From IMG/VR virus record IMGVR_UViG_3300042898_001199, positions 1 to 63,903 of that record: a stretch of 63,903 nt of DNA; one strand, given 5' to 3'. Position 1 is the first letter of the stretch, and each line of letters opens with the position of its first letter. Below the pieces are notes generated by a model. That model saw nothing but the letters and a program-made list of their open reading frames with translations. It did no database searches and was not told where the DNA came from. The DNA is from a virus. Taxonomy: Duplodnaviria > Caudoviricetes. This document shows, piece after piece, positions 2,161 through 30,527 of the stretch. The position numbers and the translations under genes are program-made.

Positions 2161-3029
2161 CAACAAATTTACGTCTCAGTTAACAAAACGCGGTAAAAGT
2201 TTTACTCAGAAGTAAATAAATAACCGCAAAAAGGGGATCAGGGGATAACCAAATCCAAAACAAAAAGGGGGCAAGAAGTCAAATGTGAGGGGTTTCCAAT
2301 CCCATGGCCCACCCCCCTCAAGTAAATAAAATCGGGATTTGCGACCCCACCCCGGCCTAGCAGGAACCATGACCCAAGCCAAGACCTTGGTTATCAGCAT
2401 GTTGCATCCACGTTTCGCCCCTAACTTTAAGGATTGCCCAGCCAACACATTATATATGTAGCGATACATGATGTCGGCATCATACATCACACGTCAGCTC
2501 TAGCACACAGCATAGCAACCCAACAACAACAAGCCATGCAATACTATACAGCTCACACACAACGCATGCCTATTGCCCTGCAATACTACGGCATATCATC
2601 AGTCAACAAAGCCTTGACCTCAACCCCTTAGTGTATCATGTACACTTACTACGTTTTCCACATAAGCCTGTTCATAACTATAGTGTGCCGTCAACACAAT
2701 AAACCATGGCATACCTGAGTTGCGCCAAACCCTTGACCTTAGTGTACATTACACACCAACCTTAGTGTACTTCATACACATTAGCCTATTCGTTACGGCA
2801 GAAACCCTCCGCATGTGACCATTTATAAGTCCTGCCAAACCTACATTCCTTTCCTATAGACCTTCTGCATCCCTTGTCTTTGCTATGTTCTTAAAATAGT
2901 ACGAATTATTATCATTTTTTTATCATTGGTTATCAGTTAGTTACAATTTATTTTCATTTATTTTCATATGCCACACAATATAATCTAGCAATCTGCATTA
3001 TCCCTTCAAGAGCAACGGCTCGGAGCAAA

Positions 3030-3230
3030 GATTCCCTTACTGATTACTACCCGTACTGATGAGATATCAGTTGTACACAGGAGTGTTATTCGAATAGAGG
3101 TAGTAGAGGGTAGAGAGTTTAGCTAGATAGAAGTAGTACTCAACTATACTTAGCCGTCAAAGGTAACTAACTGAGCAAGGGTGTTACACGGAGAGAGTAC
3201 TAGTCACACAGGTCGGACTTAAAAGACCAA
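3030..3230 (+). ncRNA. structured leader RNA upstream of the early operon
   Basis: nested stems TACTACC/GGTAGTA, ACTGAT/ATCAGT, TAGTACTC/GAGTACTA, CCGT..GTAAC/GTTAC-ACGG, GGTC/GACC; no ORF. Confidence 0.5.
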
Positions 3231-3231
3231 A

Positions 3232-3243
3232 GTTCTTTGACAT
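3232..3243 (+). promoter_or_regulatory. boxA-like antitermination site
   Basis: GTTCTTTGACAT resembles rRNA-operon boxA (GYTCTTTRAMA) and follows a GGTC/GACC hairpin. Confidence 0.55.
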
Positions 3244-3256
3244 ATCGGTAACACAC

Positions 3257-3318
3257 TGAAACGCTTGGAGAGGTCTGCTCGTGAGAGAGGCTTTGGGGTT
3301 CGACTCCCCACGTTTCGC
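3257..3318 (+). ncRNA. tRNA-like element without an anticodon arm
   Basis: 7-bp acceptor stem TGAAACG/CGTTTCG, T-arm TGGGG-TTCGACT-CCCCA, stemless D-loop CTTGGAG, and a GTGA-tetraloop helix in place of the anticodon arm. Confidence 0.75.
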
Positions 3319-3339
3319 TAACCAATTAATACACACACT

Positions 3340-3699
3340 ATGTACAAAATTGCATTTCATCTAGCACGAGGAGTTCACTTCATGCATTGGCAAATTAAGG
3401 GAGATAACGGAGAGGTAATCTACGTTAACCCTAACGAGAGTGACATTGTTATTCACGGATGTAAACTGAAGAACCAAAGGAGTACCTCACTCAAGATTCA
3501 CCAAGGCGGTGACAAGTTCAGATGTGCTTGGGTTCAATTCGATTCATTCGAGATTGTGCCACTATCTAACTACACGTCAAAGACTCAAGTTCGTTTCAAT
3601 CCGAGGGTTAAACCTACGTGGGTTGTAGGAGGTGTTGACGAGCAGGACAACAGAGAGTTCAACGTCCTTTACACTAACCGTTCACAGCTATTTGCATAA
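3340..3699 (+). CDS. early hypothetical protein
   Basis: 119-aa ORF with TAACCAA..ACACAC leader. Confidence 0.8.
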   Translation: MYKIAFHLARGVHFMHWQIKGDNGEVIYVNPNESDIVIHGCKLKNQRSTSLKIHQGGDKFRCAWVQFDSFEIVPLSNYTSKTQVRFNPRVKPTWVVGGVDEQDNREFNVLYTNRSQLFA

Positions 3700-3752
3700 G
3701 GTTTACTGAAGAGAGTTTAATACTCGAAACGGGGGTTATCCCCGTCTAAACC
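3700..3752 (+). ncRNA. type I hammerhead ribozyme (HH1)
   Basis: stem I GGTTTA/TAAACC, core CTGAAGA, stem II GAGT/ACTC, GAAA, stem III CGGGG/CCCCG, GTC triplet; predicted cut after C3746. Confidence 0.93.
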
Positions 3753-3771
3753 AATTTAAATCAATAATGCC

Positions 3772-3879
3772 ATGGAGACTAAAATCTTAAGAATCGAGGG
3801 GAACTTTGAAGTAATCGGGTTCTTCATCAACGGAGTATTAGTACGCACTACGAAGAGACGTGTATACTCTTGGAACTAA
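3772..3879 (+). CDS. 35-aa early protein (not in ORF track)
   Basis: METKILRIEGNFEVIGFFINGVLVRTTKRRVYSWN, downstream of the HH1 leader. Confidence 0.6.
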   Translation: METKILRIEGNFEVIGFFINGVLVRTTKRRVYSWN

Positions 3880-3906
3880 AACATTAATCATCTAATACCA
3901 ATTGCC

Positions 3907-4062
3907 ATGAACTCAAATCAGAAAACCATCAACAGCCTGTCTTTACTAGGTATCGCAGGAGGACTTCTTCTAGTGAGCTTGAGCATGACCTTCTTTGGAG
4001 GAGTGTTCATCACACTATTCACCTTATCATTGACAGCTAACCTGCTGTTGCCACAACACTAA
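3907..4062 (+). CDS. 51-aa early membrane protein (not in ORF track)
   Basis: two hydrophobic segments; leader ATACCAATTGCC-ATG. Confidence 0.6.
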   Translation: MNSNQKTINSLSLLGIAGGLLLVSLSMTFFGGVFITLFTLSLTANLLLPQH

Positions 4063-4082
4063 CCAATAAATACATAGAAAAC

Positions 4083-4412
4083 ATGAACGTATTACAATTG
4101 AACATTGGGCTGAATAACAACCCTTACAGCCCTGAGGAAGTTACTCGACTACTTACTACATACTTTGACGGATTAGTGGGAGTCAGAGAACACATGGGCG
4201 AGTGGGAGGGTGAGCCTGAGCCAACGATGGTTGTTAAGATTGTTGTTGACATGGAGTATACCGATGCTTACATCATGGTCTCAACAATGGCTAGCAACTT
4301 CACTCAAGACTGCATCGCAATGAAGTTCAACGATAAAGGAACTTTGGTTTATAATGTCGATTACGAGGGGAACCCATTCGACTTCAGCGATGAATATTTC
4401 ATCGAGTTCTAG
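4083..4412 (+). CDS. acidic early hypothetical protein
   Basis: 109-aa ORF; its TAG stop overlaps the first base of HH2. Confidence 0.8.
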   Translation: MNVLQLNIGLNNNPYSPEEVTRLLTTYFDGLVGVREHMGEWEGEPEPTMVVKIVVDMEYTDAYIMVSTMASNFTQDCIAMKFNDKGTLVYNVDYEGNPFDFSDEYFIEF

Positions 4413-4471
4413 GTTAACTGATGAGTCCTGAGTGGACGAAACGTGAGGCTCTCCAGCCTCATGTCTTAACC
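4412..4471 (+). ncRNA. type I hammerhead ribozyme (HH2)
   Basis: stem I GGTTAA/TTAACC, core CTGATGA, stem II GTCC/GGAC, GAAA, stem III CGTGAGGCT/AGCCTCATG, GTC triplet; predicted cut after C4465. Confidence 0.95.
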
Positions 4472-4485
4472 AAATAATTATTGCC

Positions 4486-4722
4486 ATGAATACTGAAGAA
4501 CAACTGAAAAAAAGGCTTGCCCTTATTGAGGATGACTTGCGAGTAATTCGAGAGTTCATCTACATCCAAGGTTTGACATCGGAGTTCGAGAAATCGACCC
4601 CGTATTCTGACGAGGCTTGGGTTCACCTGAACAACATCGACATTGCATGTGACCTAAGCGATGACGAGTGCCTGACTTGGAAAACATTTACAAACTTTAA
4701 CGAACAAACTAGACCGCTATGA
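4486..4722 (+). CDS. early hypothetical protein
   Basis: ORF immediately after HH2. Confidence 0.75.
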   Translation: MNTEEQLKKRLALIEDDLRVIREFIYIQGLTSEFEKSTPYSDEAWVHLNNIDIACDLSDDECLTWKTFTNFNEQTRPL

Positions 4723-5000
4723 GCAGAATCACCAAACTTCAGAAGCAGATTGCCGATGCACACATCAGAGCAAATCGAGAGGGTTCATTCACTAACTTGA
4801 AAGTAAATTCAAAAGAGGAATTTCACCAAGCCTTGGAGAGAGGTGAGACCTACGAAATAGTCTACAAAGAAATTGTATACAGATACGCCTCGATGACTAG
4901 CCTGATAATGGCTAATGTACTAGACCACGAGAGCAAGGCTTACACACAGGCTGTGTACAAAGGATTTAAAAACGTGCTTAATTCAATCGATGTAAAATGA
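4719..5000 (+). CDS. early hypothetical protein
   Basis: ATGA-coupled ORF. Confidence 0.75.
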   Translation: MSRITKLQKQIADAHIRANREGSFTNLKVNSKEEFHQALERGETYEIVYKEIVYRYASMTSLIMANVLDHESKAYTQAVYKGFKNVLNSIDVK

Positions 5001-5209
5001 AACCGAGTTACCACAACATGAAGCTACCCATGATTAAGGGAGCAATAACCTTCCCCTGTAGGGCTAAGGTAGAACTACGCATTCAGGTATACGGAAGAGT
5101 GGTAGTGAGTGAGGTGAACTTCAGCAATGAGGTTCACGTTATGAACTACACGAAACTGATGTACCGCAAGATGATGGACGTACTGACAATTGAAAAACTT
5201 AATAACTAA
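4997..5209 (+). CDS. early hypothetical protein
   Basis: ATGA-coupled ORF. Confidence 0.7.
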   Translation: MKPSYHNMKLPMIKGAITFPCRAKVELRIQVYGRVVVSEVNFSNEVHVMNYTKLMYRKMMDVLTIEKLNN

Positions 5210-5222
5210 TAAATACACACAC

Positions 5223-5429
5223 ATGAACATTGACACACTAATCGCATACGAGTCAGGGGAACTGAACGATGCCGATACTATAACCTTCTTTGCAGACCTT
5301 GTTAAAACCAAGATGGCTTGGAGTCTTCAGGGAAGTTACGGACGCATGGCTTCAGCCATGATTGATGCAGGGTTTATCTCTCCTGAGGGAGAGGTGACCG
5401 AGTTAGCAGAAGAAACCTTTAATAATTAA
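5223..5429 (+). CDS. early hypothetical protein
   Basis: start moved to MNIDTL after the ACACACAC leader; AWSLQGSYGR motif. Confidence 0.75.
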   Translation: MNIDTLIAYESGELNDADTITFFADLVKTKMAWSLQGSYGRMASAMIDAGFISPEGEVTELAEETFNN

Positions 5430-5433
5430 TACA

Positions 5434-5661
5434 ATGGAAAAACTATTCAAACAATTAGTGGGGAAAAAAATCGCCAGTCTCCGTTACATGACCAAGGGCG
5501 AGTGCGAGGCACTAGGGTTCCACAAGAGTTCGATAATCATTCGACTAGACGATGGCACATGGCTCATCCCAATTGCAGATGATGAGATGAATGACGGAGG
5601 TTCTCTGTACACGATAGGCAAAGGGGAGGAAAATATAATACCAACAACGTACACCACATGA
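5434..5661 (+). CDS. early hypothetical protein
   Basis: ORF in operon, DDEMNDGG motif. Confidence 0.75.
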   Translation: MEKLFKQLVGKKIASLRYMTKGECEALGFHKSSIIIRLDDGTWLIPIADDEMNDGGSLYTIGKGEENIIPTTYTT

Positions 5662-5822
5662 AGACTAAAAGATATATCCTGACATTGCTCAATGAAACGG
5701 GAGGAGTAATTGACGCGAGAATATTTTACGCACTCAGTAGAGTGGATGCACTCGAGCAGGCAAAACTGTTCATGAATTTTCAAAATCTTAAACTTAAATT
5801 TAAACTAAACCTTTTTAAATAA
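5658..5822 (+). CDS. 54-aa early protein (not in ORF track)
   Basis: ATGA-coupled, fills the gap between neighbours. Confidence 0.55.
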   Translation: MKTKRYILTLLNETGGVIDARIFYALSRVDALEQAKLFMNFQNLKLKFKLNLFK

Positions 5823-18095: not shown

Positions 18096-18127
18096 CAAAT
18101 TTACGTCATTTTGTTATTTGCTTTCAA
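18096..18127 (-). promoter_or_regulatory. promoter for the lysis cassette, probably leaderless
   Basis: TTG-N21-TAAATTTG ending 5 nt before ATG 18090. Confidence 0.6.
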
Positions 18128-21100
18128 TTTTATTGTCAATAATCTTGAAATAATTAGTTTTTATAGGCTTAACATTTGTCAACTTCTTATTGTATTGATA
18201 CAAGTCGTAGTAATATCTTTCTAAAGCTTGTTGACCACCTGCCTCACTAGCTTCATACTTACTGTAATCAGTATCTGTTTCAATTGATTTAGTGATGTAA
18301 TCAGACACTTCTTGATCGTATTCCTCTTTAGAGAATCCCTCTAAGAATTTACCTAACGCAACATCATCAAGGAAAGTTAAGTTTTCAAAGTTTAACTTAG
18401 GATAATCAGCAGGATCAACATCATACTTCAACTTCTTCTTAGCGTCAAACTTTGCCTTCTCAGCTAAGAATTTAATTACCGCATATTTACCCTCATCATT
18501 TCTATCTTTCAAGGCATATCTATTATTCTTCAACTCATCTTGTATGTAGTTCTTGAACATTGATGTAGCCTCTTGAGTCAGAGCTTCAGATCTTTCTTTT
18601 CTCTTTTCTGCTGAGACAAATTTAGAGTTGTCTTGTACAGACAAAACACCTACACCGTTCTGATCAAAGTTCAACACACCAGCTACCAAGTTGTATTTAC
18701 CGTCAGATGATAAAATAACTACGTCTTGTTGAATAGCAACCTCATCTTGAAGCGACTTGATAAAGTCTCTAGAGAATGGAATTTGCTTACCATCCATAGC
18801 AAGTATTAAGTTCGTTGCCATGATCGTAGCGGAAAGCATTTTATTTAGGTCTGCTGTTTCTTCGTTGAACAATTTACCACCCTCTTCCCATAAGTCATAA
18901 ATAGTTGCCTTGTTGTGTCCTGGCTCATCAAGATAATCTTTATATAACTTTTGAGCTTCTTGCATCAACATATATACTGGAGGAACGCTAGTTGCAAATG
19001 CTAAAGCGGCATACTTTTCTACAGCATCATATTTTTCAAAGTCAATACCTTCTGTAAAATAAAGAGATTGTAGAACTTCATCAATAGGTTGTCTTTCTGC
19101 ACCTTTCATATTTCTAGCAAACTGCAATAAAGATATAGCCATCGCTCTACCAGAAGCACCGTATCTAGAGGTGGTTACATTGGCCGCTAGATTAATACCC
19201 ATAGAGGCGATCATCTTCCACATCTTGTCCGGGTTAGTAAACATTTCTAAAGTTTCTTCACCTTTTTTCTTTTCCTTGTCATCATCACTAAAGAAAGCTC
19301 TTTCAATACCTTTTACAGCAGCAAATATCACAGTATACATAGTCAAACTTGTAGCTGAAGTGGCAAATTTAAATAATCCTCTTCCTAGATCTGCTCCCTT
19401 ATTCATCCGGTCATCCTTAGTGATACCTCTTCCAGCTCTCTTAGCTCCGTAAAGCATGTTGCTAACGTCTCTGTATACAAAGTTGTTGAATAAGTTAAGC
19501 ATTTGAGCGACAGTATCATTTGATGATACAAGACCTTTACTAACGTCAGATTTGCTTCCCTTGCCTGTCAATGCCATTTTAGGTATACTAAACAAATCGG
19601 GCAACCATCTGTAGTTTGCTCTTGCCTGACCTTTGAATGAACCACCTTTAATAGATTGAATTCTCTGATCTGCAAATGAGGCAGCCCTATCTAAATCATA
19701 TTTGTAATCACTATCATCAAAATGTTTAGCTTCAGAATAATCTTCGCCAGTTAAACGCTTGAACTCTGATCTAAAATAAGACATCCATTCCCCAGGAGTT
19801 AATGGTGCTGTTAAGTTGTGCAATGAAGCGATTGAGTTTTCTAATTGCTGAGAGAAAGTATTCTTTGTAAGGTTTCCTTTCTTAGTAGTTACCTTGACCT
19901 TAAAATCCCAGTTTAAATTAGCTACAGGGCTGCCAAATTTCTCCATAAGATTTTTAGCCTCTCTGTAAGACTTGGGGTCAAAACCTCTAAGGCTTAAAGT
20001 TCTAAAAATACCAGAACCTATATTTGTTAAAGTCTCAGCTGCTGTTCTTCCAATACCAATCAAAAGTTTAGCCGCAAAAGATTTTGTCAACTTTGTTAAG
20101 AAGTTATTTGCAGATCTGCTTAATTGATGGTCAACACGATTTCTGTTTGACTGTTGAAGAGCGTTTAATGTTTTGACATCTGCATCTCTTCCTTCCGCTC
20201 TAGCCGCCTCTCTTGCGTTTTTAAACACTTCATTAACGTAAGATATTGCGTTGCTAATATAGAAATCTCGTGCAGATTCAAAGGCGTTGTTTGCCACAAG
20301 AGAATCAACATTGAATTGTAATGGCCCAGCAGGATCTTTTGACACACGACTGTAAGATGACTGAGATCTAACAGTACCTCCAACAGCACCACCATATCCA
20401 AGCTCAACATTAGAGTCTTCAGACATTCCCTTTCCAATATATCTACGAGGAGAGAAGAACTCTGTCAGCTCACCATTAACACCTCTTACAGCGTTAGCGT
20501 TGATAATTAACTCGCCAGAAGTTCTGTTGGCCTCTCTAAATGCACTGTAAAGCTTTTGCTCGCTCTCAGACATCAAAGAAGAAGGGTCGTTAAGATAAGC
20601 TTCGTATATCTTTCTATAATCTAACTTGCCGTTCGTTACAAATGCAGGGTTAGATATTAAGTTGTTGTATACGTCTTCTACGATATTCAAGACACCTTCC
20701 TCATCGTATATCGCACGCTCGATAGAATCTTCTTTTAGCTGATTGCCTAACCAGTCATTCGTATTCTCGTTATACTGATAAGCTTTATGACCTGAGTCAA
20801 GGATATGAGAGAGTATACCAACTCTGTGTTTGAAATATTTCTTAGCACTTACAGAACCTTTTGCAGTCTTAACTCTATCTTTTAAGAATAAGAATTTACG
20901 ATTTGCAAATGATAAGTCAGCAGTTTTCTTGTAGTAAGAATCTAATATCTGATTTACCTTATCGCTCATCTTCTTAAACGATCTGTCGATAGGAGCAACA
21001 ACATATTGATATAAAGCATCTCCTTCTTTCAATCCAAGAACGTCTTCCCATTGGGCAGCCTCTTCAGACGATAACTTTCTCAACAAAAGATTAACCCCTT

Positions 21101-24100
21101 TCGTTAACTTTTTATAAATATCACCTAGTTGATTTACAATTCTTAATCCAGCCTCTTGCGATCTAATCTCAACACGATTAACCATTTCACGAACTTCCTT
21201 TTCCGGCATGAAGCCGTACTCCATTCTGTCTAAAGCTTCGTTTAATTTTAACAAGTCTTTTACATCTAAGTTCATTAACTCGTTAGCAGACAAGCTTCTT
21301 AATCTTTCAAACAAGCTTTTTTGCTCACCAACAAATAAATCGTTAGTAGTAATGCTTGAAATCTTCTGGAACAAATCATCTGTCAAACCTTCTTTCAAAG
21401 TGTCAATTTGATCTTGATGATTTGCCTCATAGACTCTCAGCCCATTTTCCATAGTGTAAAGATCTCCTGAGGCCCATTGCTCGTGTGTAGCGGCATCAAT
21501 TAACCCCTGGTTATACAGCGAGTCCAAAATTCTTTTAGCCTTGTTTACAGATCTTACAAATGCGGTATACTCCTCTAGCGTGTCAATAGGCATAGACTTG
21601 ATATCTGTTAGTAGATCAAAATAATCTGCCGGCAGAAATTCTTTCTTGCCTAAATCTGCGCTAAAAGCCTTGTCAGCCAAAGACATATCTAATCCCGTAT
21701 GATCAGGAACCGGCTTTGCCAATCTAGCAACCGCGTCTAAATAACGATCCATCTCTGCATCAGTCAATAGAGGATTGTTGTCCGTGTCAAACAAAGGAAT
21801 AGATACGAATCTTAAAACATCTTCTGTAAATTCATTGTGCCTTCTCTTAAGGGCTGTCTTTCTATTAGAAGCTAAAGCATCCATTTTAGCAGCAAACTCC
21901 TTGTTAGCAACAATCTTATCAACATACTGTATGAAGTTGTCAATTTGCTTGTCTGTAAGAGATGTCACTGCACCTGTAGCTCTGTTTACAATAGCTGAAA
22001 TTTGCTGGCTATTCAACCCACTCAGTTTAGCTAATTTTAAATATTCCTTAACAAAGTATCTAAAACTATTACGTTTGTTTTTCTCGTCAGCCTTAGCTTG
22101 CTTAATATTTTCTTTTGTTTGAGATAATTCAGTTCTCAGTTCTTTTAGTTTTTCTTTTAACTTAAACACATCAGGCTTTTCATCACCTCTCTTAGCCTTA
22201 AGTTCAGCCTTGTTTATTTTATCCCACTGTGCATTTACAGCGTCTTTTAACTCGTCAACCGTAAAGAACTCCATGCCATCTCTTGTGGCATCAGCAAATG
22301 CTTTTTCTATAGCAATAGCTTTTGAAGAGTTATCCATTTCGGAATATATCTTAGCAACAGTAGCAATATCTTCAGCTAATTTATTTTTTAAGTCCCTTTC
22401 AATATTCTCCTCAAACTCTCTTTTTTTCCAAGAAGACATATCTCTAAAGCCTTTAATCTTTCTAGCTTTAGCAATCAAGTCATTTACTGTATTTAAAATA
22501 CCAGCACCTTTCCTTACCTTATCCGCAGACTCGTCAAGAAGTAAACTGTATTCCAATTTATCACTATTATTCATTTGAAGTTTAGTAGTGATGTTTTCCG
22601 ATTTGCCTGTTGAGGTTTTATTTTTCTCAGCCAATACTTCGTTAGCCTCAAACATTTCTAAAGCTGGGTTGAACTCAATAGAAGAAGGATAATCTTTATC
22701 AGGTCTCTGATAAAACTCTCCCTTCATTTTCTCAGTTGTCTCAGCTCTTAAATCTTCACCCCACTTAACAACAATCATTGGATAACCTAAATTAGCCGCT
22801 TCTTGAGCAATGAATGCAGCTTGTTTATTAGGATCAAAAGCCTGGCCTGGATACATCTTCTCAAACGTAGCTTTTGCCGCATCATATAAGTTCAATGGAT
22901 CCTCATTAAAAGGATACACATTATCTTTAGGTATTCTTACAACATAACCATATTTACCTGATACATCTAATACGTCAGGTCGAGTGTAGTACATGCTGAT
23001 ATTTAACCCCGGTCTTTCGTCTTTTCCTGTTCTTGAGGTGTTTTTACCAAAGTACTTAGGATCGATAGAAGATATTTTATTTGGAGAGTAGTGGTAGAAC
23101 AAGTAATTACCTTGGTCATCCTCGGTCATATGCTTAGTTAACTTAGCATTGTCTACTAAAGATTTAACTTGAGACTTAGACACGAAATTTTTAAATCCTT
23201 CCGTATCTTTTTTGGAACCTAATACATGAACTTGTTTATTTGAATCAACCGCTATCTGATCCATCTCTGGAGTTAGCTCGTTAAATTTCTGGTATGCAGG
23301 CAATCCGTTCTCATCAACCGGCCCAACATATTCACCTATATATGTATTATTTTCACCTTCCGTTTTAAAGTCAACATAATTATCTTTATCAAGACCCTTG
23401 TAAGCAATAATAGCGTCAGCACCGTTTGTTACTTTAGAAACAGTCAACTCTTTAAGACCTGCGTATCCTCTTCTCCAGTTGGCATCTATATCAACTACAT
23501 GAAAATTATTAACATTAAGAATTGCAGCTGAAATTCTACCTTTGCCACCACCTGTATAGTCAGCAGATTTATTTTTATTAAGTGTCCAATATAAACCCTT
23601 GCCTAAGTTCTTAGCCCCTGTACCTTTTTCAGGATCTAAGTCTTCCGCTTCAATCATATCTGAATTTTCAGATCCTCTGTAAAAGATATTTTGCAATAAA
23701 CTTTTTGGGAAAATATTTTTGAGGTACTCGGCATATTTTTCAACTGTCCCAATAGATTTTAATTCGGGATTTTGTTCAAACACTTCGTTTAAAACTGCAC
23801 GTTGAGTATCATCTATTTGAGATTTAACTTGAGCTTTATATTTTATACCAGTATTAATTCTAACTACTGAATAAGGTATATTTCTAGCTCCTGCAAAATT
23901 AGCCGCATATTCTAAATCTCTTAAAGGAGTATTATCATTTTCAATTTTTTCTGATGTTCTAACTTCACCATCTTTTACTGAAGATAAAATATCTTTATAA
24001 TTTTTCCTTTCTGATAACATATGGACAGTTACTCTTTGGCCGTCTTCTGTTTTCATTACTCCTGGATAAGAAATGTGTTTTCTTTTTTTCGCTGGAATAT

Positions 24101-27100
24101 CAGACTCGTCTTCAACAATTAATTTAGAAGGTATTTCAATATAAGCAACTGCCGATTCAATAGGAGCGTTTTCCATAAAACCTTCTTCCTGTACATTGCC
24201 TAATCTTTTAGTTGCGGCATCAACTGTTATTTTACCGCTTTTATTTAATGGGATATTTAACTTCTTAGATAAACTACTAAAGTCAATTTCATTAGATTTA
24301 AATATTTCAGCTATAATTTTCTTCCCAACATCAACTCTTTTCTTAAAGGTTTCATCGTTAGAGTTTATAAAGTAGTCTTTAATAACACTATGAAGTTCTT
24401 TTGCGCTTAATTTTCCGCTAAATAATTTGATCCCCTCATTATCTTTTTCTTCTTTAACTGCCGTATTTAAAGCATTTCTAAATACACTTAATGGTATATC
24501 ACCATCTTGAACTGCTAACTCTAAAATATCTATAGCAGCAGCCATACCATCTCGACTACTTAATACTTTTAAATCTGTTGATTTAAATACAACTACTCTC
24601 ACAGGCTTGCCTGGGTATTTGTCAAATATTTTATTTACTAAATTGATAAATGTTTTTGACATCTTAGGAGTTGAAGCCCAGAATGTACCGTCTTTATTAT
24701 ATTTAATAGCAAAGTGCAAACCTCCATTTCCTTCTAATACTACTCTCTTATCTCCTTTTTTATACTTAACGCCATCAACTTCCGTGTCTTTGTCATAAGT
24801 GCCGTAAGATAAATCTCCAACCATTTTATTATCAGGGAACATTGATATTACGACCTCACCCTCTAACTCTTCAATCTTTGCATTTTGAACTAAATACCCC
24901 TCATCTTCCAATTTTTTCAAATCAGATGCAGGTATAAGATTAGCTTCAAAATTTCCACCTAATGAATATTTTGACTTTACTTCATCAGACGTGTTAACGT
25001 TTTCAGCAAATTTATTATCAAGTTTTATTTTTTGACCATAGTAAACTTTGCTTGCAAAAGTCTGGAAGAATTCCATAATCTCTTCTGGAGAAGATGTATC
25101 GTCAATAGGCTTAAGATCAGGGCCAAAATACTTAGCAATAAGTTGGTTGATATACTCAGCAATAGACTTTAAGAAAGATTTATTAGCAGGATCAGACTCT
25201 TTTAATTGAGACAATAAAGCTGTAACCTCAGAAACATATTCCTCAGCACGCTCAACATCGCTATACTCTTCATTAGAAGCTAAATCAGCAGCGATCTCAT
25301 CTATTGATATCTCAAATGGAACGCCATCTTTATCTAAGGCTATTAGTTTTTTACCCTTAGCAAGATCTGCTATTTTATTTTTAAACTGAGCGTATAACTC
25401 AGGCTTATCTCCAAACATTTTAAACAATAGAGCGTGAGTCATCTCATGCGCTACAGTACGAAGATTAGCAGACTCTAAATTAATCGCAATAACTCCAGTT
25501 TCTTCCCCAGGAAGAATTGTGAATAAACCTCTTGAGTCAGCATTAGCACCAACAGAGTTAGCGTAATTTTTAAAATCACTTTCATTATCAAAAACAATAA
25601 TGTTAAAGTTAGGAAGCACAGACTTTAATGTTTTTAAAGCCTTGACAACTTGAGCTACTACTCTCTTCTGAGTAGGGGTCTTTGCCACTTTTGCTAACTC
25701 CTTAGCTCTGTTGTTATCAGAAACATTATATCCGGTAGTATTTGCTTGGTTTAAAATATCGTCTGTTGTAGGCTGAACGTTTTCTTCATTAGAAGTCTCT
25801 ATTTTATTGCCATCCTTATCGAGCAAAGTATCAAAGTCGTATTCTATAGCAAAGTCTACTTTCTCACCAGCTACATTCATCGTGCTGTAATTATCTCCTT
25901 GAGATTCAAACTTCTCGGCTCCCTTGATTCTAGGATGGTAAGATCCATCTTGAAATACTAATCCGTCATGGGCAGCTACAGACTCTTGATCAAATTCTAT
26001 TGCAAAAGCAACAGCGTCTTCTCTAGACAAATTAGGAACAAAGAAACTAAGTTCTGAATTACCATACTTGCCAAATGCACCGTCAGTAGAGTAACCTCTT
26101 TCTTCTAGCCAAGATTTAGCAGCCTCATTTCTTTTAGCGTTTTCTTCATCGCTAAGAGATTTTCTTTGAGGGTTCCAAGCTGTAAGAAGACCAAATACAC
26201 CGTTCTTAATCGTTTCTATAAATGAATTACGGTCAGGAAAAGAAGACTCCGGTAAATTTGCTATAGCATTCTCATCCCAAGCCTCGTCTCTAACTATTTC
26301 TGGGGTGTTGGTTTCTGTTCCTGGAGTTTGCTCAGATTTAACTTCACGCAATAGAGGGGTGATAAGAGCATCGTATTTATCATAGATAGGCTTATAGATA
26401 GCGTACAAATCATCCGGCATGCTGCCTTGTGTATCACCTTTTGTATCTGAATAATTGTCTATATCAGGTATCGCATTACGAAGATCTTCCTGTTCTCTAG
26501 CTCTTAGATCAGCTATGTCTTGATCTTTGTTTTCTTCAACAGGCTTAACCTTTTCTTCTTCATCTTTTTGTTTATTAGCCTGCTCTCTTGCTTTTAACAA
26601 TTGAGCGTTGATTAATTCTTTTGCCTTAGGTAGATTTTCTTCAACCATACCTCCAGATACTTCAGGAGCAAAGTTCACTTCTTTAACAGTGCCATCTTGA
26701 TTCATTGAATAAGAAACCACACCTAGCTCAGAAAGAGAATTAACGAGAACGTCTGACGATTGTCTTCTCTTTTGATCAGCATTAAATGCAGTTAATATCT
26801 TATTATCTAATTCTTCAATTTTTGCAGTAGACTCCACGTCAACTATGCCTAATTTTTCAGCTTCTTTAGTCGCTTGAACTAGTTTGCCTTTTTGAATGTA
26901 TAGGTCTAAAATCTCAGCCTTGGCCAAGTCTCCAGCTTTCTTAAAAGGAATTACTCTTTCTAACTCTTTATAAGTATTGTTAACCTTTTGGAAGTCCTTA
27001 TACTGATCAGTTTCTTTTACATCGGCATTTCTCTTTTCAGCTTGAGCTAAAATTTCCTTGCCGTTTTTACCAACCTCTAATTGCATGAATTTCAAACCAG

Positions 27101-30100
27101 CAGTCTTATCAGTTTTTTCTGAAATAACTTCTGCGGTAGTTGCTATAGATGCGCTAGCTGTTCCGATTAAAGCCCCGATGGCCCCTTGAACTAAAACTTC
27201 TTTAGCCGCCTCAGGAAGAGTGTCATTTTTAATTTCTGCTAAATTCATGATTGTAGACTCTACAACACCAGAAGTTATCTCTTCCCCAGCTTCTTTTGTA
27301 CCTTGAGAGAACACTTTAAACCCAGCATTTCTAGTTATTTCGTATGCGTTTGCAAGAAGTGCCTTGGAAATTTGTTGAGCAGATAAACCATCAGCTAATC
27401 CTCTAGAAATGATTTGAGCTGAATTCTTTTTAATAGTAATTCCCACAGCGTCCGGAAGTTCAGGTACTAAAGCTTCAATAGAAGCTAGTGTGCCTGCTGT
27501 CAAGGTTCCGTACAACATTGCTAATCCTTTGTCATACCCAGCGTCTTCAAATTGCTTAACCATATCTCCTTCCATTACAAGGAAGTTATATGTAATAACT
27601 CCTGCTGCGCCAAAAGACATGGATGCTCCTACATTATACACTAGATTTGGCACTTGAGATATAGCGTTGCTATACCACCACATTCCACTATACTCTTCTA
27701 AATAAGGATTGACAGCCATTTCTGACCATCTTGTTTTTCTAAACTGAGTATTTTGCATATTTGCATCTACCTCGTCCCAAGTATTACTATCATCTGTAAA
27801 CACAGATTCAATAACATTATACGTTTGAATAAAACCTTCCCCAATATTTTTATTTGCAGTGAAAATAGTTTTCACTGTTGATTCAAGAATATTATCCTCT
27901 TTAGCACTTTTTTTCAAATAAGCGTTCCACTCGTCTTCTTTTAATTTTGCAGCGGAATATGCTCCTGAATATCCGCCACCAGAAACTACAGAATATTGAG
28001 GGTTTTCACGAAGATTAATATCTAAATTGTCAATAGTATATTTAATTGATTTTAAATCAGCAAAACCTTTATCTTTAGACACGATATTCAACTTAGAACT
28101 TAAAAAAGCAATCTCTTCGTAATCTTCTTTATGATCATCATAAAACTTTTGAAGCTTACCAGCGTCTCCACCAAGTGACTTGCTAGACTCAACTATCTTA
28201 TTTCTTTCTTCTATTAATTGTTTTTGTTTAGCGAGAATCTCGTTAACCTTATCAGAATTCTCATTTTTAATATAAGATTCTCCCTTTTCATTTTTGTCTA
28301 AATAGGGTTGAAGTTCGCCTTCTAACTTATCTAATTGATTTATTTTTTGATTAACTAAATCTAATAATTCTTGAGCTTTATTTTTATCAACACCATCCTT
28401 AAGGTGCAATCCATCTTCTTGAACATCATAATACTGTTCAATCTCTTTAGATATTTCCTGAACCTCTGTATTAAGTTTTGTTAAATCCTCAGAAATCTTC
28501 GCAGCTTTTGCCGATCCGTCAGTAGATTTCAAAATAATCTGATTGTCAACAACATCGGCATATTGAGCTAGCTCAGTTTCTGTTTCTTTAATGGATTTAT
28601 CAAAGTTTGAAATAAGCTCATTGTTTTTCTTAATCTCTTGTAGGTTAATATCTAATTCAGATTTATCTATATCTAATTTAGATTCTTCATCTGCAATTTT
28701 ACTATTTAAATTTTCTAATCTTCGAGAGTCTTTATCAGCAGTTCTCAAAGCACCAGATGATTTCAAGTCATCCGTCTTTAAATATGCAGATGCACTATAA
28801 AAAGATGTTACATCATTTAAAGCAGATCTTCTAATATTCATAGCCCATTGAGCATCTGCTTGAAAACCTTTATCCATTTCACCATACCCTCTTCCGGCAA
28901 CATTGTTTTCATGAATTTGCTTCATGTGATCAAGATCCTCTTGCTTAAACTTACCAGTCTCAATACCTTTTTCGATGTATTTTAAATCCATGTAATAAGC
29001 AACGTCCTCGTTCAATTTATTGTAAAGATCATCAGCAGCTTTAGCTTTTGCCTGTGCTTCTAATTCCTTAACTTTTGCAAAATCATATTCAATCGGATTG
29101 CCAAATTGATCTACCTCTGGCAACTTAACATTCTGAACGTATTCAGAGTTTGCAATTAAGCGTTTTAAGTCATTTTGATTGCCAATTAAAAACTCTTTTG
29201 GAGAGATGCCCATGCCACTCAATATTTGAGCAGATTCAGACACATTTATATTGTTGAAGAAATCTTCGTCAATTTTATCAACATGTGCGTTGTTAGTAAC
29301 TATTTGCTCTGCACTCTCTCTATTTTTTCTTTTATTAATACCAGCAAAGAAAGTTCCTTCTCCAGGACGGCCAAGTATACCTCCAAGAATGTTAAACTTG
29401 CCGTCTAAAGATTTAGCTTGAGTTTTTTGGACTTCCTTGTTTTTCTTGATCGTGCCTCTAAGAACATCCATAAATGTTTTAGGAGCATTCTCGTCAGCTG
29501 TAGCTACTACTTCCTGCTCTCCCATCAAACCTTCAATGGTTCCTAAGTTATATTGCCCTTGGTGTTTAGTCAAGGCCAAGTCTACAAGAGCTGTAGCGGA
29601 GTTTTCATCCCATTCGGGATTACTAGCTCTAATCTCTTCCTTAAGTTTAGTTTCTTCCTCAGCACTCATGCCGTGAAATAAAGAAACTGTTTTTCTATTA
29701 AGGTCATTCCACGCATCATCATTACCAGTGTAATTACGAATAGTAGAAGAAGATTTTTTGATATAATCATTATAAACAGCGTCACCCACTTGGCCTGTGT
29801 AGTTATTTGCTGTTTTTTTAGCTTTAGTTACATAATCTTTTGAGTAATCGCTTTCTTCATTTTCAGAGAAGTATACAATTTCATAAGTGCCATCTGCATT
29901 ATCCTTATACCCCAATATCTGATCAACTCCATATTCAGGACCTTGATCTACACTCGGGTCGTTTTTTCTTGCAAATGAAAATTTCTTTTGCTTTTCCTTT
30001 TTTTTTCTGCCTGGTTTTTCCGGGTCATCAACTTCTATATCTTCCTCCACAACTTCTGGCTCTTCAAAAAATCCTCCCCCTGTTGATTGGGAAAGTAAAT

Positions 30101-30527
30101 TACTAGCTTTAGATCGAAGATCCTTTAAGTCAGAAGCATCCTGCATGAAGTTCTGTGGTGCTGGGGCAGCAAATGTCTGCGTAGGCTCAGTTGGCGCAGG
30201 CTCACCTGCACTATCTATAACAGAACCCTGCTGAGTATCAGCAGAAACCTGACCGGTTGCTTCTGTAGTCTCTAATGGCTGATCTGTAGGCTGAGATAAT
30301 TCTTCCTCTCCAACCTCTTTTTTTTTTCCAGAAATCAGATTTTCAAAATCCGACAGAGTTTGTACACGCAAATGTTCTGGAGCGTCAGATGAAAACTTCA
30401 AAACCTTGGCAATTCTTGTCTTATAGACATCGTTGCTTGATAATAAAGTATCAAATTCTTCTTTGTCAGAATTAATCTTACCATTTGTTTTCAAATACGA
30501 ATACAATTCTTCTGTTTCTAAAGCCAT
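18114..30527 (-). CDS. giant polyvalent internal virion/ejection protein (4137 aa)
   Basis: last of the ejection-like genes; DUF3293-like LTAWNP..EENAKRN, zincin VAHEMTH, two ART-like YRG/YHY..[GM]xY[WY]T segments, long coiled coils. Confidence 0.8.
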   Translation of the reverse strand: MALETEELYSYLKTNGKINSDKEEFDTLLSSNDVYKTRIAKVLKFSSDAPEHLRVQTLSDFENLISGKKKEVGEEELSQPTDQPLETTEATGQVSADTQQGSVIDSAGEPAPTEPTQTFAAPAPQNFMQDASDLKDLRSKASNLLSQSTGGGFFEEPEVVEEDIEVDDPEKPGRKKKEKQKKFSFARKNDPSVDQGPEYGVDQILGYKDNADGTYEIVYFSENEESDYSKDYVTKAKKTANNYTGQVGDAVYNDYIKKSSSTIRNYTGNDDAWNDLNRKTVSLFHGMSAEEETKLKEEIRASNPEWDENSATALVDLALTKHQGQYNLGTIEGLMGEQEVVATADENAPKTFMDVLRGTIKKNKEVQKTQAKSLDGKFNILGGILGRPGEGTFFAGINKRKNRESAEQIVTNNAHVDKIDEDFFNNINVSESAQILSGMGISPKEFLIGNQNDLKRLIANSEYVQNVKLPEVDQFGNPIEYDFAKVKELEAQAKAKAADDLYNKLNEDVAYYMDLKYIEKGIETGKFKQEDLDHMKQIHENNVAGRGYGEMDKGFQADAQWAMNIRRSALNDVTSFYSASAYLKTDDLKSSGALRTADKDSRRLENLNSKIADEESKLDIDKSELDINLQEIKKNNELISNFDKSIKETETELAQYADVVDNQIILKSTDGSAKAAKISEDLTKLNTEVQEISKEIEQYYDVQEDGLHLKDGVDKNKAQELLDLVNQKINQLDKLEGELQPYLDKNEKGESYIKNENSDKVNEILAKQKQLIEERNKIVESSKSLGGDAGKLQKFYDDHKEDYEEIAFLSSKLNIVSKDKGFADLKSIKYTIDNLDINLRENPQYSVVSGGGYSGAYSAAKLKEDEWNAYLKKSAKEDNILESTVKTIFTANKNIGEGFIQTYNVIESVFTDDSNTWDEVDANMQNTQFRKTRWSEMAVNPYLEEYSGMWWYSNAISQVPNLVYNVGASMSFGAAGVITYNFLVMEGDMVKQFEDAGYDKGLAMLYGTLTAGTLASIEALVPELPDAVGITIKKNSAQIISRGLADGLSAQQISKALLANAYEITRNAGFKVFSQGTKEAGEEITSGVVESTIMNLAEIKNDTLPEAAKEVLVQGAIGALIGTASASIATTAEVISEKTDKTAGLKFMQLEVGKNGKEILAQAEKRNADVKETDQYKDFQKVNNTYKELERVIPFKKAGDLAKAEILDLYIQKGKLVQATKEAEKLGIVDVESTAKIEELDNKILTAFNADQKRRQSSDVLVNSLSELGVVSYSMNQDGTVKEVNFAPEVSGGMVEENLPKAKELINAQLLKAREQANKQKDEEEKVKPVEENKDQDIADLRAREQEDLRNAIPDIDNYSDTKGDTQGSMPDDLYAIYKPIYDKYDALITPLLREVKSEQTPGTETNTPEIVRDEAWDENAIANLPESSFPDRNSFIETIKNGVFGLLTAWNPQRKSLSDEENAKRNEAAKSWLEERGYSTDGAFGKYGNSELSFFVPNLSREDAVAFAIEFDQESVAAHDGLVFQDGSYHPRIKGAEKFESQGDNYSTMNVAGEKVDFAIEYDFDTLLDKDGNKIETSNEENVQPTTDDILNQANTTGYNVSDNNRAKELAKVAKTPTQKRVVAQVVKALKTLKSVLPNFNIIVFDNESDFKNYANSVGANADSRGLFTILPGEETGVIAINLESANLRTVAHEMTHALLFKMFGDKPELYAQFKNKIADLAKGKKLIALDKDGVPFEISIDEIAADLASNEEYSDVERAEEYVSEVTALLSQLKESDPANKSFLKSIAEYINQLIAKYFGPDLKPIDDTSSPEEIMEFFQTFASKVYYGQKIKLDNKFAENVNTSDEVKSKYSLGGNFEANLIPASDLKKLEDEGYLVQNAKIEELEGEVVISMFPDNKMVGDLSYGTYDKDTEVDGVKYKKGDKRVVLEGNGGLHFAIKYNKDGTFWASTPKMSKTFINLVNKIFDKYPGKPVRVVVFKSTDLKVLSSRDGMAAAIDILELAVQDGDIPLSVFRNALNTAVKEEKDNEGIKLFSGKLSAKELHSVIKDYFINSNDETFKKRVDVGKKIIAEIFKSNEIDFSSLSKKLNIPLNKSGKITVDAATKRLGNVQEEGFMENAPIESAVAYIEIPSKLIVEDESDIPAKKRKHISYPGVMKTEDGQRVTVHMLSERKNYKDILSSVKDGEVRTSEKIENDNTPLRDLEYAANFAGARNIPYSVVRINTGIKYKAQVKSQIDDTQRAVLNEVFEQNPELKSIGTVEKYAEYLKNIFPKSLLQNIFYRGSENSDMIEAEDLDPEKGTGAKNLGKGLYWTLNKNKSADYTGGGKGRISAAILNVNNFHVVDIDANWRRGYAGLKELTVSKVTNGADAIIAYKGLDKDNYVDFKTEGENNTYIGEYVGPVDENGLPAYQKFNELTPEMDQIAVDSNKQVHVLGSKKDTEGFKNFVSKSQVKSLVDNAKLTKHMTEDDQGNYLFYHYSPNKISSIDPKYFGKNTSRTGKDERPGLNISMYYTRPDVLDVSGKYGYVVRIPKDNVYPFNEDPLNLYDAAKATFEKMYPGQAFDPNKQAAFIAQEAANLGYPMIVVKWGEDLRAETTEKMKGEFYQRPDKDYPSSIEFNPALEMFEANEVLAEKNKTSTGKSENITTKLQMNNSDKLEYSLLLDESADKVRKGAGILNTVNDLIAKARKIKGFRDMSSWKKREFEENIERDLKNKLAEDIATVAKIYSEMDNSSKAIAIEKAFADATRDGMEFFTVDELKDAVNAQWDKINKAELKAKRGDEKPDVFKLKEKLKELRTELSQTKENIKQAKADEKNKRNSFRYFVKEYLKLAKLSGLNSQQISAIVNRATGAVTSLTDKQIDNFIQYVDKIVANKEFAAKMDALASNRKTALKRRHNEFTEDVLRFVSIPLFDTDNNPLLTDAEMDRYLDAVARLAKPVPDHTGLDMSLADKAFSADLGKKEFLPADYFDLLTDIKSMPIDTLEEYTAFVRSVNKAKRILDSLYNQGLIDAATHEQWASGDLYTMENGLRVYEANHQDQIDTLKEGLTDDLFQKISSITTNDLFVGEQKSLFERLRSLSANELMNLDVKDLLKLNEALDRMEYGFMPEKEVREMVNRVEIRSQEAGLRIVNQLGDIYKKLTKGVNLLLRKLSSEEAAQWEDVLGLKEGDALYQYVVAPIDRSFKKMSDKVNQILDSYYKKTADLSFANRKFLFLKDRVKTAKGSVSAKKYFKHRVGILSHILDSGHKAYQYNENTNDWLGNQLKEDSIERAIYDEEGVLNIVEDVYNNLISNPAFVTNGKLDYRKIYEAYLNDPSSLMSESEQKLYSAFREANRTSGELIINANAVRGVNGELTEFFSPRRYIGKGMSEDSNVELGYGGAVGGTVRSQSSYSRVSKDPAGPLQFNVDSLVANNAFESARDFYISNAISYVNEVFKNAREAARAEGRDADVKTLNALQQSNRNRVDHQLSRSANNFLTKLTKSFAAKLLIGIGRTAAETLTNIGSGIFRTLSLRGFDPKSYREAKNLMEKFGSPVANLNWDFKVKVTTKKGNLTKNTFSQQLENSIASLHNLTAPLTPGEWMSYFRSEFKRLTGEDYSEAKHFDDSDYKYDLDRAASFADQRIQSIKGGSFKGQARANYRWLPDLFSIPKMALTGKGSKSDVSKGLVSSNDTVAQMLNLFNNFVYRDVSNMLYGAKRAGRGITKDDRMNKGADLGRGLFKFATSATSLTMYTVIFAAVKGIERAFFSDDDKEKKKGEETLEMFTNPDKMWKMIASMGINLAANVTTSRYGASGRAMAISLLQFARNMKGAERQPIDEVLQSLYFTEGIDFEKYDAVEKYAALAFATSVPPVYMLMQEAQKLYKDYLDEPGHNKATIYDLWEEGGKLFNEETADLNKMLSATIMATNLILAMDGKQIPFSRDFIKSLQDEVAIQQDVVILSSDGKYNLVAGVLNFDQNGVGVLSVQDNSKFVSAEKRKERSEALTQEATSMFKNYIQDELKNNRYALKDRNDEGKYAVIKFLAEKAKFDAKKKLKYDVDPADYPKLNFENLTFLDDVALGKFLEGFSKEEYDQEVSDYITKSIETDTDYSKYEASEAGGQQALERYYYDLYQYNKKLTNVKPIKTNYFKIIDNKIESK

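Follow-up and report, generated by a model that had tools for sequence, protein, structure and literature searches.

A predicted type-I hammerhead ribozyme between two early genes of an uncultured freshwater phage, and the stereotyped family to which it belongs

The window that we analysed (63,903 bp) spans an entire IMG/VR virus record and carries between two small genes a 60-base element, HH2 (4412-4471, + strand), which tests of sequence, fold, conservation and covariation identify as a genuine hammerhead. We put at roughly 0.7 the probability that HH2 is an active type-I ribozyme, one that would cut its RNA co-transcriptionally between C4465 and U4466, uncouple the two cistrons and give the downstream gene a defined leader. 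The features on which the argument turns are the following.

3700-3752, + strand: HH1, sister type-I hammerhead with core CUGAAGA, 59.4 bits, adjoining the TAA stop of ORF 3340-3699
4083-4412, + strand: upstream ORF, 109 aa, no known function; phrog_11722 (function unknown) at E 1.8e-5, no Pfam match, homologues in 11 family loci
4412-4417, + strand: HH2 stem I, 5′ strand GGUUAA of a 6-bp stem, preceded by A4411
4418-4424, + strand: HH2 catalytic core CUGAUGA (C3-A9)
4425-4437, + strand: HH2 stem II hairpin, 4 bp GUCC/GGAC, with loop UGAGU, which fits the U-N-A-N-U of the family
4438-4440, + strand: HH2 core G12 A13 A14, conserved in 103/103 of the family
4441-4464, + strand: HH2 stem III hairpin, 10 bp from A15.1-U16.1 inward, with loop CUCC
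4465-4466, + strand: HH2 predicted cleavage site, C17 (4465) / U1.1 (4466), from the hammerhead consensus
4466-4471, + strand: HH2 stem I, 3′ strand UUAACC, followed by A4472
4472-4485, + strand: A/U-rich remainder of the leader, without Shine-Dalgarno sequence
4486-4722, + strand: downstream ORF, 78 aa, no known function, with a homologue of 55% identity in L022

By sequence HH2 is a complete type-I hammerhead, in which three helices, every one of them fully paired, surround the core. Read 5′ to 3′, it is composed of GGUUAA, CUGAUGA, GUCC-UGAGU-GGAC, GAA, A-CGUGAGGCU-CUCC-AGCCUCAUG-U, C and UUAACC, and stem III contains a single G·U pair (G4443·U4462). The core consists of CUGAUGA (4418-4424), GAA (4438-4440), the pair A4441-U4464 and C4465 at position H17 (not G); the cleavage triplet is GUC, and stem II is closed by G10.1-C11.1, where G4425 pairs with C4437. 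Stem I is open, stems II and III are closed by loops and the predicted cut lies at the 3′ end, as in the type-I topology. At its minimum free energy (-23 kcal/mol, z = -3.57) the sequence adopts precisely the hammerhead fold, and only 2 of 200 shuffled sequences folded at least as well.

HH1 and HH2 lie 660 nt apart, both on the + strand, and flank three small ORFs. The HH1 core, CUGAAGA, is allowed because position 7 is free, and its predicted cut (C3746/U3747) would leave a 25-nt leader to the ATG at 3772. The core words alone are not significant, since CTGATGA-N6-36-GAAA has 3 matches in the window for 2.4 expected. The full descriptor, with the core, the three helices and an H17 other than G, matches two sites only in the 63.9 kb, HH1 and HH2; any match at all, even at looser stem thresholds, was seen in 3 of 200 Markov-shuffled windows. 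A held-out covariance model, derived from the members of 55 other phage contigs with the window excluded, gave HH2 57.8 bits (E 7e-14) and HH1 59.4 bits, with no other site in the window above 11.3 bits. The first-pass annotation had called 4412-4471 a hammerhead with the architecture of HH1 but with different helices. The call itself is borne out by the full motif, the minimum-free-energy fold and the held-out score, and the common type-I layout stands. The contrast between the helices was overdrawn: the two stems I are nearly alike (GGUUAA in HH2, GGUUUA in HH1), and stems II and III, described as completely different yet fully paired, do pair fully but have G10.1-C11.1, A15.1-U16.1 and C15.2-G16.2 in common.

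Three loci, L095, L115 and L119, have early genes in common with the window at 50-97% protein identity. In L119 a homologue of ORF 4083-4412 with 55% identity is immediately followed by a hammerhead (L119:3110-3167) whose core is preserved and whose stems II and III are different in sequence and fully paired. The L115 copy (L115:12099-12156) has nearly the same stem III as HH2 and a different stem II, GGGU/ACCC, again fully paired. HH1 also has a counterpart (L119:2179-2230), whose stem I is likewise GGUUUA and whose cleavage triplet is GUA. Loss of pairing or of core bases in homologues would have spoken against function, and neither is seen in the L119 and L115 copies, where the core is kept and the stems are fully paired. 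These compensated orthologues, together with the family covariation described below, support the earlier suggestion that the pairing of HH2 reflects maintained function and not chance.

We scanned IMG/VR with a pattern in which the core and a GGUUNA stem I were fixed and stems II and III left free. The pattern occurs in at least 119 stretches, with 155 matches, 136 of them unique, among the matches listed, and in 6 stretches only of 185,579 prokaryote genomes. Of the 136 unique members listed, 92% form 4 or more consecutive pairs in stem II and 93% form 5 or more pairs in stem III, against 8% in either case after interior shuffling; all four Watson-Crick pair types were seen at the free stem positions of these 136. 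A first alignment, made of the 55 shortest unique members with the window left out, was the source of the covariance model: 98.8% of its cells pair, and its covariation is 0.436 against 0.094 when shuffled (0/500 shuffles as high). Applied to 100 loci (906 kb), the model returned 175 matches with a bimodal distribution, 170 at 46.5 bits or more and 5 below, so that decayed copies are rare. In a model-fitted alignment of 104 matches the core positions are conserved in 103-104 of 104, or in 102-104 when the pair A15.1-U16.1 is counted in, and H17 (n=103) is C in 88 and A in 15, with no G at all. There, 99.7% of cells pair, covariation reaches 0.587 against 0.127 when shuffled and double changes occur in 11 of 15 pairs, counts that lean towards the structure to which this alignment was fitted. 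Covariation among homologues, proposed at the outset as a check on HH2, is thus found in both alignments, and all three helices covary across more than 100 members of the family. A fortuitous match, or a relic that has lost its activity, would be consistent with core words occurring at about the chance rate and with the lack of any Rfam model at threshold; it is nevertheless very improbable, given the intact core, the high held-out score, the compensated orthologues and the near-absence of decayed copies in the family.

The silence of Rfam extends beyond HH2. At gathering score, Rfam gave zero matches in the window, and a whole-window scan by E-value gave two weak, unrelated matches only. The best match for HH2 is RF03152, the RAGATH-1 pseudoknot hammerhead, at 22.4 bits for a gathering score of 56.3. 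Model positions 26-77 align with 4413-4470 in the same type-I order of parts; however, positions 1-25, a 5′ extension, have no counterpart in HH2, where stem II forms an ordinary hairpin of 4 bp. HH2 falls outside RF03152. With Hammerhead_3 (RF00008) the score is 18 bits for a threshold of 48.5, in a forced alignment. HH2 has the catalytic core and the three-way junction in common with the Rfam hammerhead clan, CL00010, of which we take Hammerhead_1 to be a member; no clan member matched at threshold, and only Hammerhead_3 was returned. Similarly, Rfam called no hammerhead at gathering score on 12 family loci (112 kb) in which the covariance model finds several dozen. Since the Rfam models miss the subgroup at their thresholds, it goes unannotated in phage genomes.

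A second scan of IMG/VR, in which only the core and the shape of stem II were fixed and stem I was free, found the same architecture in at least 120 stretches, 19 of the 120 already known from the GGUUNA scan. Among the matches listed in the 101 new loci, 110 of 118 are complete hammerheads, with many different stem I sequences. Stem I is exactly 6 bp long in 110/110 of these, with an A on each side in 109/110; in the GGUUNA scan too, the bases at -1 and +1 of stem I are A in 155/155 copies listed, neither position being part of the search pattern. We considered that the sequence GGUUAA might be conserved beyond its pairing and rejected this, as it is largely a product of the search pattern and the unbiased scan shows many 6-bp stems. 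What is truly invariant in stem I, among the matches listed, is a length of 6 bp and an A at either flank. The conserved U-N-A-N-U of loop II and the flanking A's are the likely partners in a putative tertiary contact between stem I and loop II, of the kind that hammerheads require to cleave fast at cellular Mg2+. The search for convincing covariation of loop II with the flanks gave none that would demonstrate such a contact, and a loop II-flank pseudoknot was rejected, the top z-score among ~42 position pairs being 3.7, with no consistent partner. By these measures HH2 belongs to a large, stereotyped and under-annotated subgroup of phage type-I hammerheads. One contig of 82,750 bp (L038) contains at least 8 family hammerheads within ~5 kb.

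HH2 fills the gap between ORF 4083-4412 and ORF 4486-4722, within a run of small + strand ORFs that begins at 3340. The first G of stem I is also the last base of the TAG (4410-4412) that ends the upstream ORF, and the leader after the predicted cut measures 20 nt (4466-4485) to the ATG at 4486. ORF 4486-4722 is absent from the corresponding position in the relative L119. Searching viral contigs with the two small flanking proteins gave no relative, the relatives having come via the DNA pattern scans, and blastn of 3300-5300 against GenBank phages gave no match.

This placement recurs throughout the family. We counted as downstream gene an ATG-ORF of at least 30 aa and as upstream gene a frame of at least 30 codons with its stop ending between -40 and +16 of the ribozyme start. 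In the GGUUNA subgroup a downstream ATG-ORF is present in 157 of 161 non-redundant copies listed, at a median distance of 23 nt past the cut (IQR 21-24), and an upstream open frame in 148 of 159 copies listed. The commonest offsets of the stop end (n=148) are +6, the TAA in GGU-UAA (49), +10, the TGA of CUGA (25), and +1, a TAG with the first G (22). All of these stops precede the cut, and the upstream message would therefore retain its own. The stem-I-free sample gave comparable figures among the matches listed, with a downstream ORF in 103/104 (median 28 nt) and an upstream frame in 96/109. The family layout is thus one in which the next ATG stands ~20-28 nt past the cleavage site and the upstream stop at or inside the 5′ end of the ribozyme. 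Many leaders of the stem-I-free sample carry a Shine-Dalgarno sequence, which indicates that the family spans more than one host group.

No terminator-like site was found on the + strand from 3300 to 5750, so that the early genes can share one transcript. Stem III as an intrinsic terminator was rejected, as it lacks a following T-run and is not among the terminator calls. A search for sigma-70 promoters was uninformative, with 36 sites for 27 expected. The phage has ~25 early gene junctions, and a hammerhead is found at 2 only, so cleavage is no general requirement for expression in this phage; several of the other junctions have the same UAACCAA leader. The 3′ strand of HH2 stem I is part of this (U)AACCAA motif, which in the window recurs at 3320, 4061, 6576, 7823 and 9585 (+), 11-22 nt before start codons without a hammerhead. 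In the family loci an ATG-ORF follows 42% of the TAACCAA occurrences outside hammerheads (n=215), compared with 9% for the reverse complement. In five loci (L128, L134, L135, L158 and L160) the leader past stem I repeats the sequence of the stem I 5′ strand, and the cleaved 5′ end could there fold a hairpin of its own, for example UUAGAC-AAUCAA-GUCUAA; this recalls the hairpin added in synthetic ribozyme insulators.

Motif, statistics, core conservation, covariation and gene context are demonstrated above; cleavage, the nature of the ends and an effect on stability or translation we infer from the established chemistry of the hammerhead class and from what is known of bacterial RNases. The 60-nt element would fold while the operon is being transcribed and cut itself between C4465 and U4466. 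Because of the type-I topology, almost the whole ribozyme would stay on the upstream product, the message of ORF 4083-4412 with its stop codon, whose 3′ end would be a compact three-way junction terminated by a 2′,3′-cyclic phosphate. The downstream product would begin with a 5′-OH and 6 nt of ribozyme (UUAACC), followed by 14 A/U-rich bases up to the ATG of ORF 4486-4722. The cut would uncouple the two cistrons, and the downstream gene would gain a short, defined and unstructured leader, part of which is held in stem I before cleavage. Bacterial RNases depend on the 5′ end of their substrates, which is the basis for the presumed effect on stability. Several observations count against this best explanation: no Rfam model matches at threshold, no convincing covariation marks a stem I-loop II contact, hammerheads are found at only 2 of the ~25 early junctions, and the stop overlaps stem I, so that terminating ribosomes would unfold the uncut ribozyme.

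The same overlap could be given another meaning. HH2 might be a regulatory switch, in which stem I hides the first 6 nt of the leader and cleavage, and with it expression of ORF 4486, depends on upstream translation or on conditions such as Mg2+. In most copies the stop overlaps the 5′ part of the ribozyme or sits inside it, so that terminating ribosomes would compete with folding, and the stem I 3′ strand belongs to a leader motif that also precedes ribozyme-free genes. However, the stem covers just 6 bases of a 20-nt leader, the start codon and the bases immediately ahead of it stay unpaired before cleavage as well, and neither a ligand-binding nor an alternative structure was found. The overlap of stop and ribozyme may moreover reflect nothing but the compactness of phage genomes. 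We regard a switch as distinctly unlikely, and prefer a ribozyme whose cleavage separates the cistrons.

The early region of this phage is mosaic, and the breakpoints fall at the RNA elements. Nucleotide homology between the window and L119 is limited to islands, 3231-3333 (a tRNA-like element described below, and its leader; 83%) and 3699-3774 (HH1 and its leader; 86%), and the genes between them are unrelated. In run X8 a DNA contig skips 3882-4436, with ORFs 3907-4062 and 4083-4412 missing, and the joint lies inside HH2: the copy at the joint has a different 5′ half and stem II and the same stem III as HH2. A contig of the RNA-library run X20 skips 3324-3753, lacking ORF 3340-3699 and HH1, with the joint AACC|AA on both sides. 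Gene cassettes are gained or lost at hammerhead/leader elements in lake strain variants.

These joints are what would be expected if the hammerheads acted mainly at the DNA level, as portable joints for gene-cassette exchange or as a small selfish repeat, RNA cleavage being incidental or self-serving. In the same direction, HH2 stem II recurs in a different hammerhead of L115 and L095, the copies within one genome tend to have a common stem I sequence, and the phage encodes a RecT recombinase. Yet this reading leaves unexplained the near-invariant core, an H17 that is never G and the compensatory changes in three helices, as well as the strict co-orientation with the genes and the fixed distance to the ATG; the sequence in common amounts to only ~14 + 11 nt, and mosaic breakpoints at conserved intergenic sequence are an expected by-product of any conserved element. 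We therefore think it unlikely that exchange is the main role, if somewhat less so than a switch. The mosaicism at hammerheads is real, and we regard it as a consequence, or a second role, of elements that would act by cleaving RNA.

Upstream of the first operon gene, the slot that hammerheads occupy elsewhere is taken by another kind of element:

3257-3317, + strand: tRNA-like mini-element, 7-bp acceptor-like stem and T-arm loop UUCGACU, with 30 nt replacing the D and anticodon arms

Next come C-UAACCAAU, the same UAACCAA leader and, 22 nt past the element, the ATG at 3340. Its L119 counterpart (L119:1884-1943) is 83% identical, and similar elements occur at L033:530-587, L087:1921-1978 and L103:3758-3815 and in L010, L011, L053, L034, L040, L057, L094 and L096. 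They stand 19-37 nt before start codons and consist of an acceptor-like 7-bp stem abutting a T-arm with a UUCGANU loop, with 10-30 nt in place of the D and anticodon arms. In L033, L087 and L103, where they precede the homologue of ORF 3340, the acceptor stems are unrelated in sequence and fully paired. ARAGORN called no tRNA at the element in the window, and its only Rfam match is a weak one to mascRNA (E = 3). RNAalifold on five elements did not recover the acceptor stem, MAFFT having misaligned the unrelated stems, which are visible sequence by sequence. The t-elements of plant mitochondria are an analogue (PMC1920247), and by this analogy RNase P or RNase Z may process transcripts at the tRNA-like elements.

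If so, the two kinds of element could form one system of punctuation, widespread among phages. A hammerhead, or a tRNA-like element presumably cut by host tRNA-processing enzymes, in the slot from stop to leader (~20-28 nt) would release selected early cistrons as separate mRNAs with a standard 5′ end, and the same elements would be the joints at which cassettes are swapped. We offer this tentatively, as a possible but rather doubtful extension of the reading preferred for HH2.

As for the phage itself, the record has a CheckV completeness of 96% and a G+C content of 37.5%. The nearest cultured relatives of its portal protein are those of Cellulophaga (Flavobacteriia) phages, at ~23% identity, and a search of Cellulophaga phage phi46:3 for a hammerhead of this family found none. 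Almost all early-operon start codons are without a Shine-Dalgarno sequence, and such near-absence fits a Bacteroidota host. The host of this uncultured 64-kb freshwater phage is probably a member of the Bacteroidota. Its DNA is present in many lake-water metagenomes, and two RNA-library runs contain small parts of the stretch as assembled contigs, a form that cannot show RNA ends. Upstream of the early operon, at 2400-3340 (+), lie ~900 bp of non-coding DNA with repeated CCUUAGUGUAC-like words near 2625, 2735 and 2760 and the direct repeat CCACGTTTCGC at 2409 and 3308; this may be a promoter or regulatory region. On the - strand, a giant ORF of 4137 aa (18114-30527) has DUF3293 as its only Pfam match, with a weaker, sub-threshold match to an S-AdoMet lyase family near residues 1448-1519. 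It showed no RNA polymerase domain.

Intergenic hammerheads in phage operons are an element of known kind, and HH2 adds little alone. Perreault et al. (2011) described clustered prophage hammerheads in three arrangements that cleave polycistronic transcripts of ~2 kb in vitro, and clustered phage and prophage hammerheads have been proposed to cut long phage transcripts into gene-length mRNAs (PMC3088659). Clustered intergenic hammerheads of phages and prophages are reviewed in PMC6155905 and PMC6765202, both of which still regard as unsettled what hammerheads do for bacteria and phages. As in the arrangement described in PMC3088659, several hammerheads of one phage operon share the orientation of the genes and border small ones with no known function: HH1 and HH2 are both in gene orientation, with no terminator-like site between them. 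The tested examples presented there come from Clostridium, Azorhizobium and Agrobacterium prophages and are of types I-III, whereas HH2 is from an uncultured, lytic-looking lake phage. Its subgroup also differs from those hammerheads in being stereotyped, all type I with an A-flanked 6-bp stem I, a 4-bp stem II, a U-N-A-N-U loop and a fixed position relative to stop and ATG. In the portions of the phage-hammerhead literature available to us we found no description of such a stereotyped type-I subgroup, and Dataset S1 of PMC3088659 may contain members.

The family reaches a cultured phage. Agrobacterium phage OLIVR1 (Schitoviridae) carries at NC_055840.1 3960-4009 (L229:3498-3547) an unannotated type-I hammerhead that scores 47.6 bits (E = 6e-12). 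Like HH2, it has an A-flanked 6-bp stem I and a GUCC/GGAC stem II, with loop UUAUU, and lies in an unannotated gap between small early genes; it differs in its stem I, GUGUAU, in a shorter stem III and in phage family and host. Being in a cultured phage, this copy might be used as a model for experiments.

In synthetic insulators of the RiboJ type, a hammerhead placed before a gene strips the upstream RNA and leaves a defined leader. They were engineered on a type-III satellite ribozyme with an added hairpin, whereas HH2 is natural and of type I. With a family that has a fixed position between stop and start, a member in a cultured phage and a tRNA-like equivalent in the same slot, ribozyme-defined mRNA 5′ ends in phage operons become directly testable.
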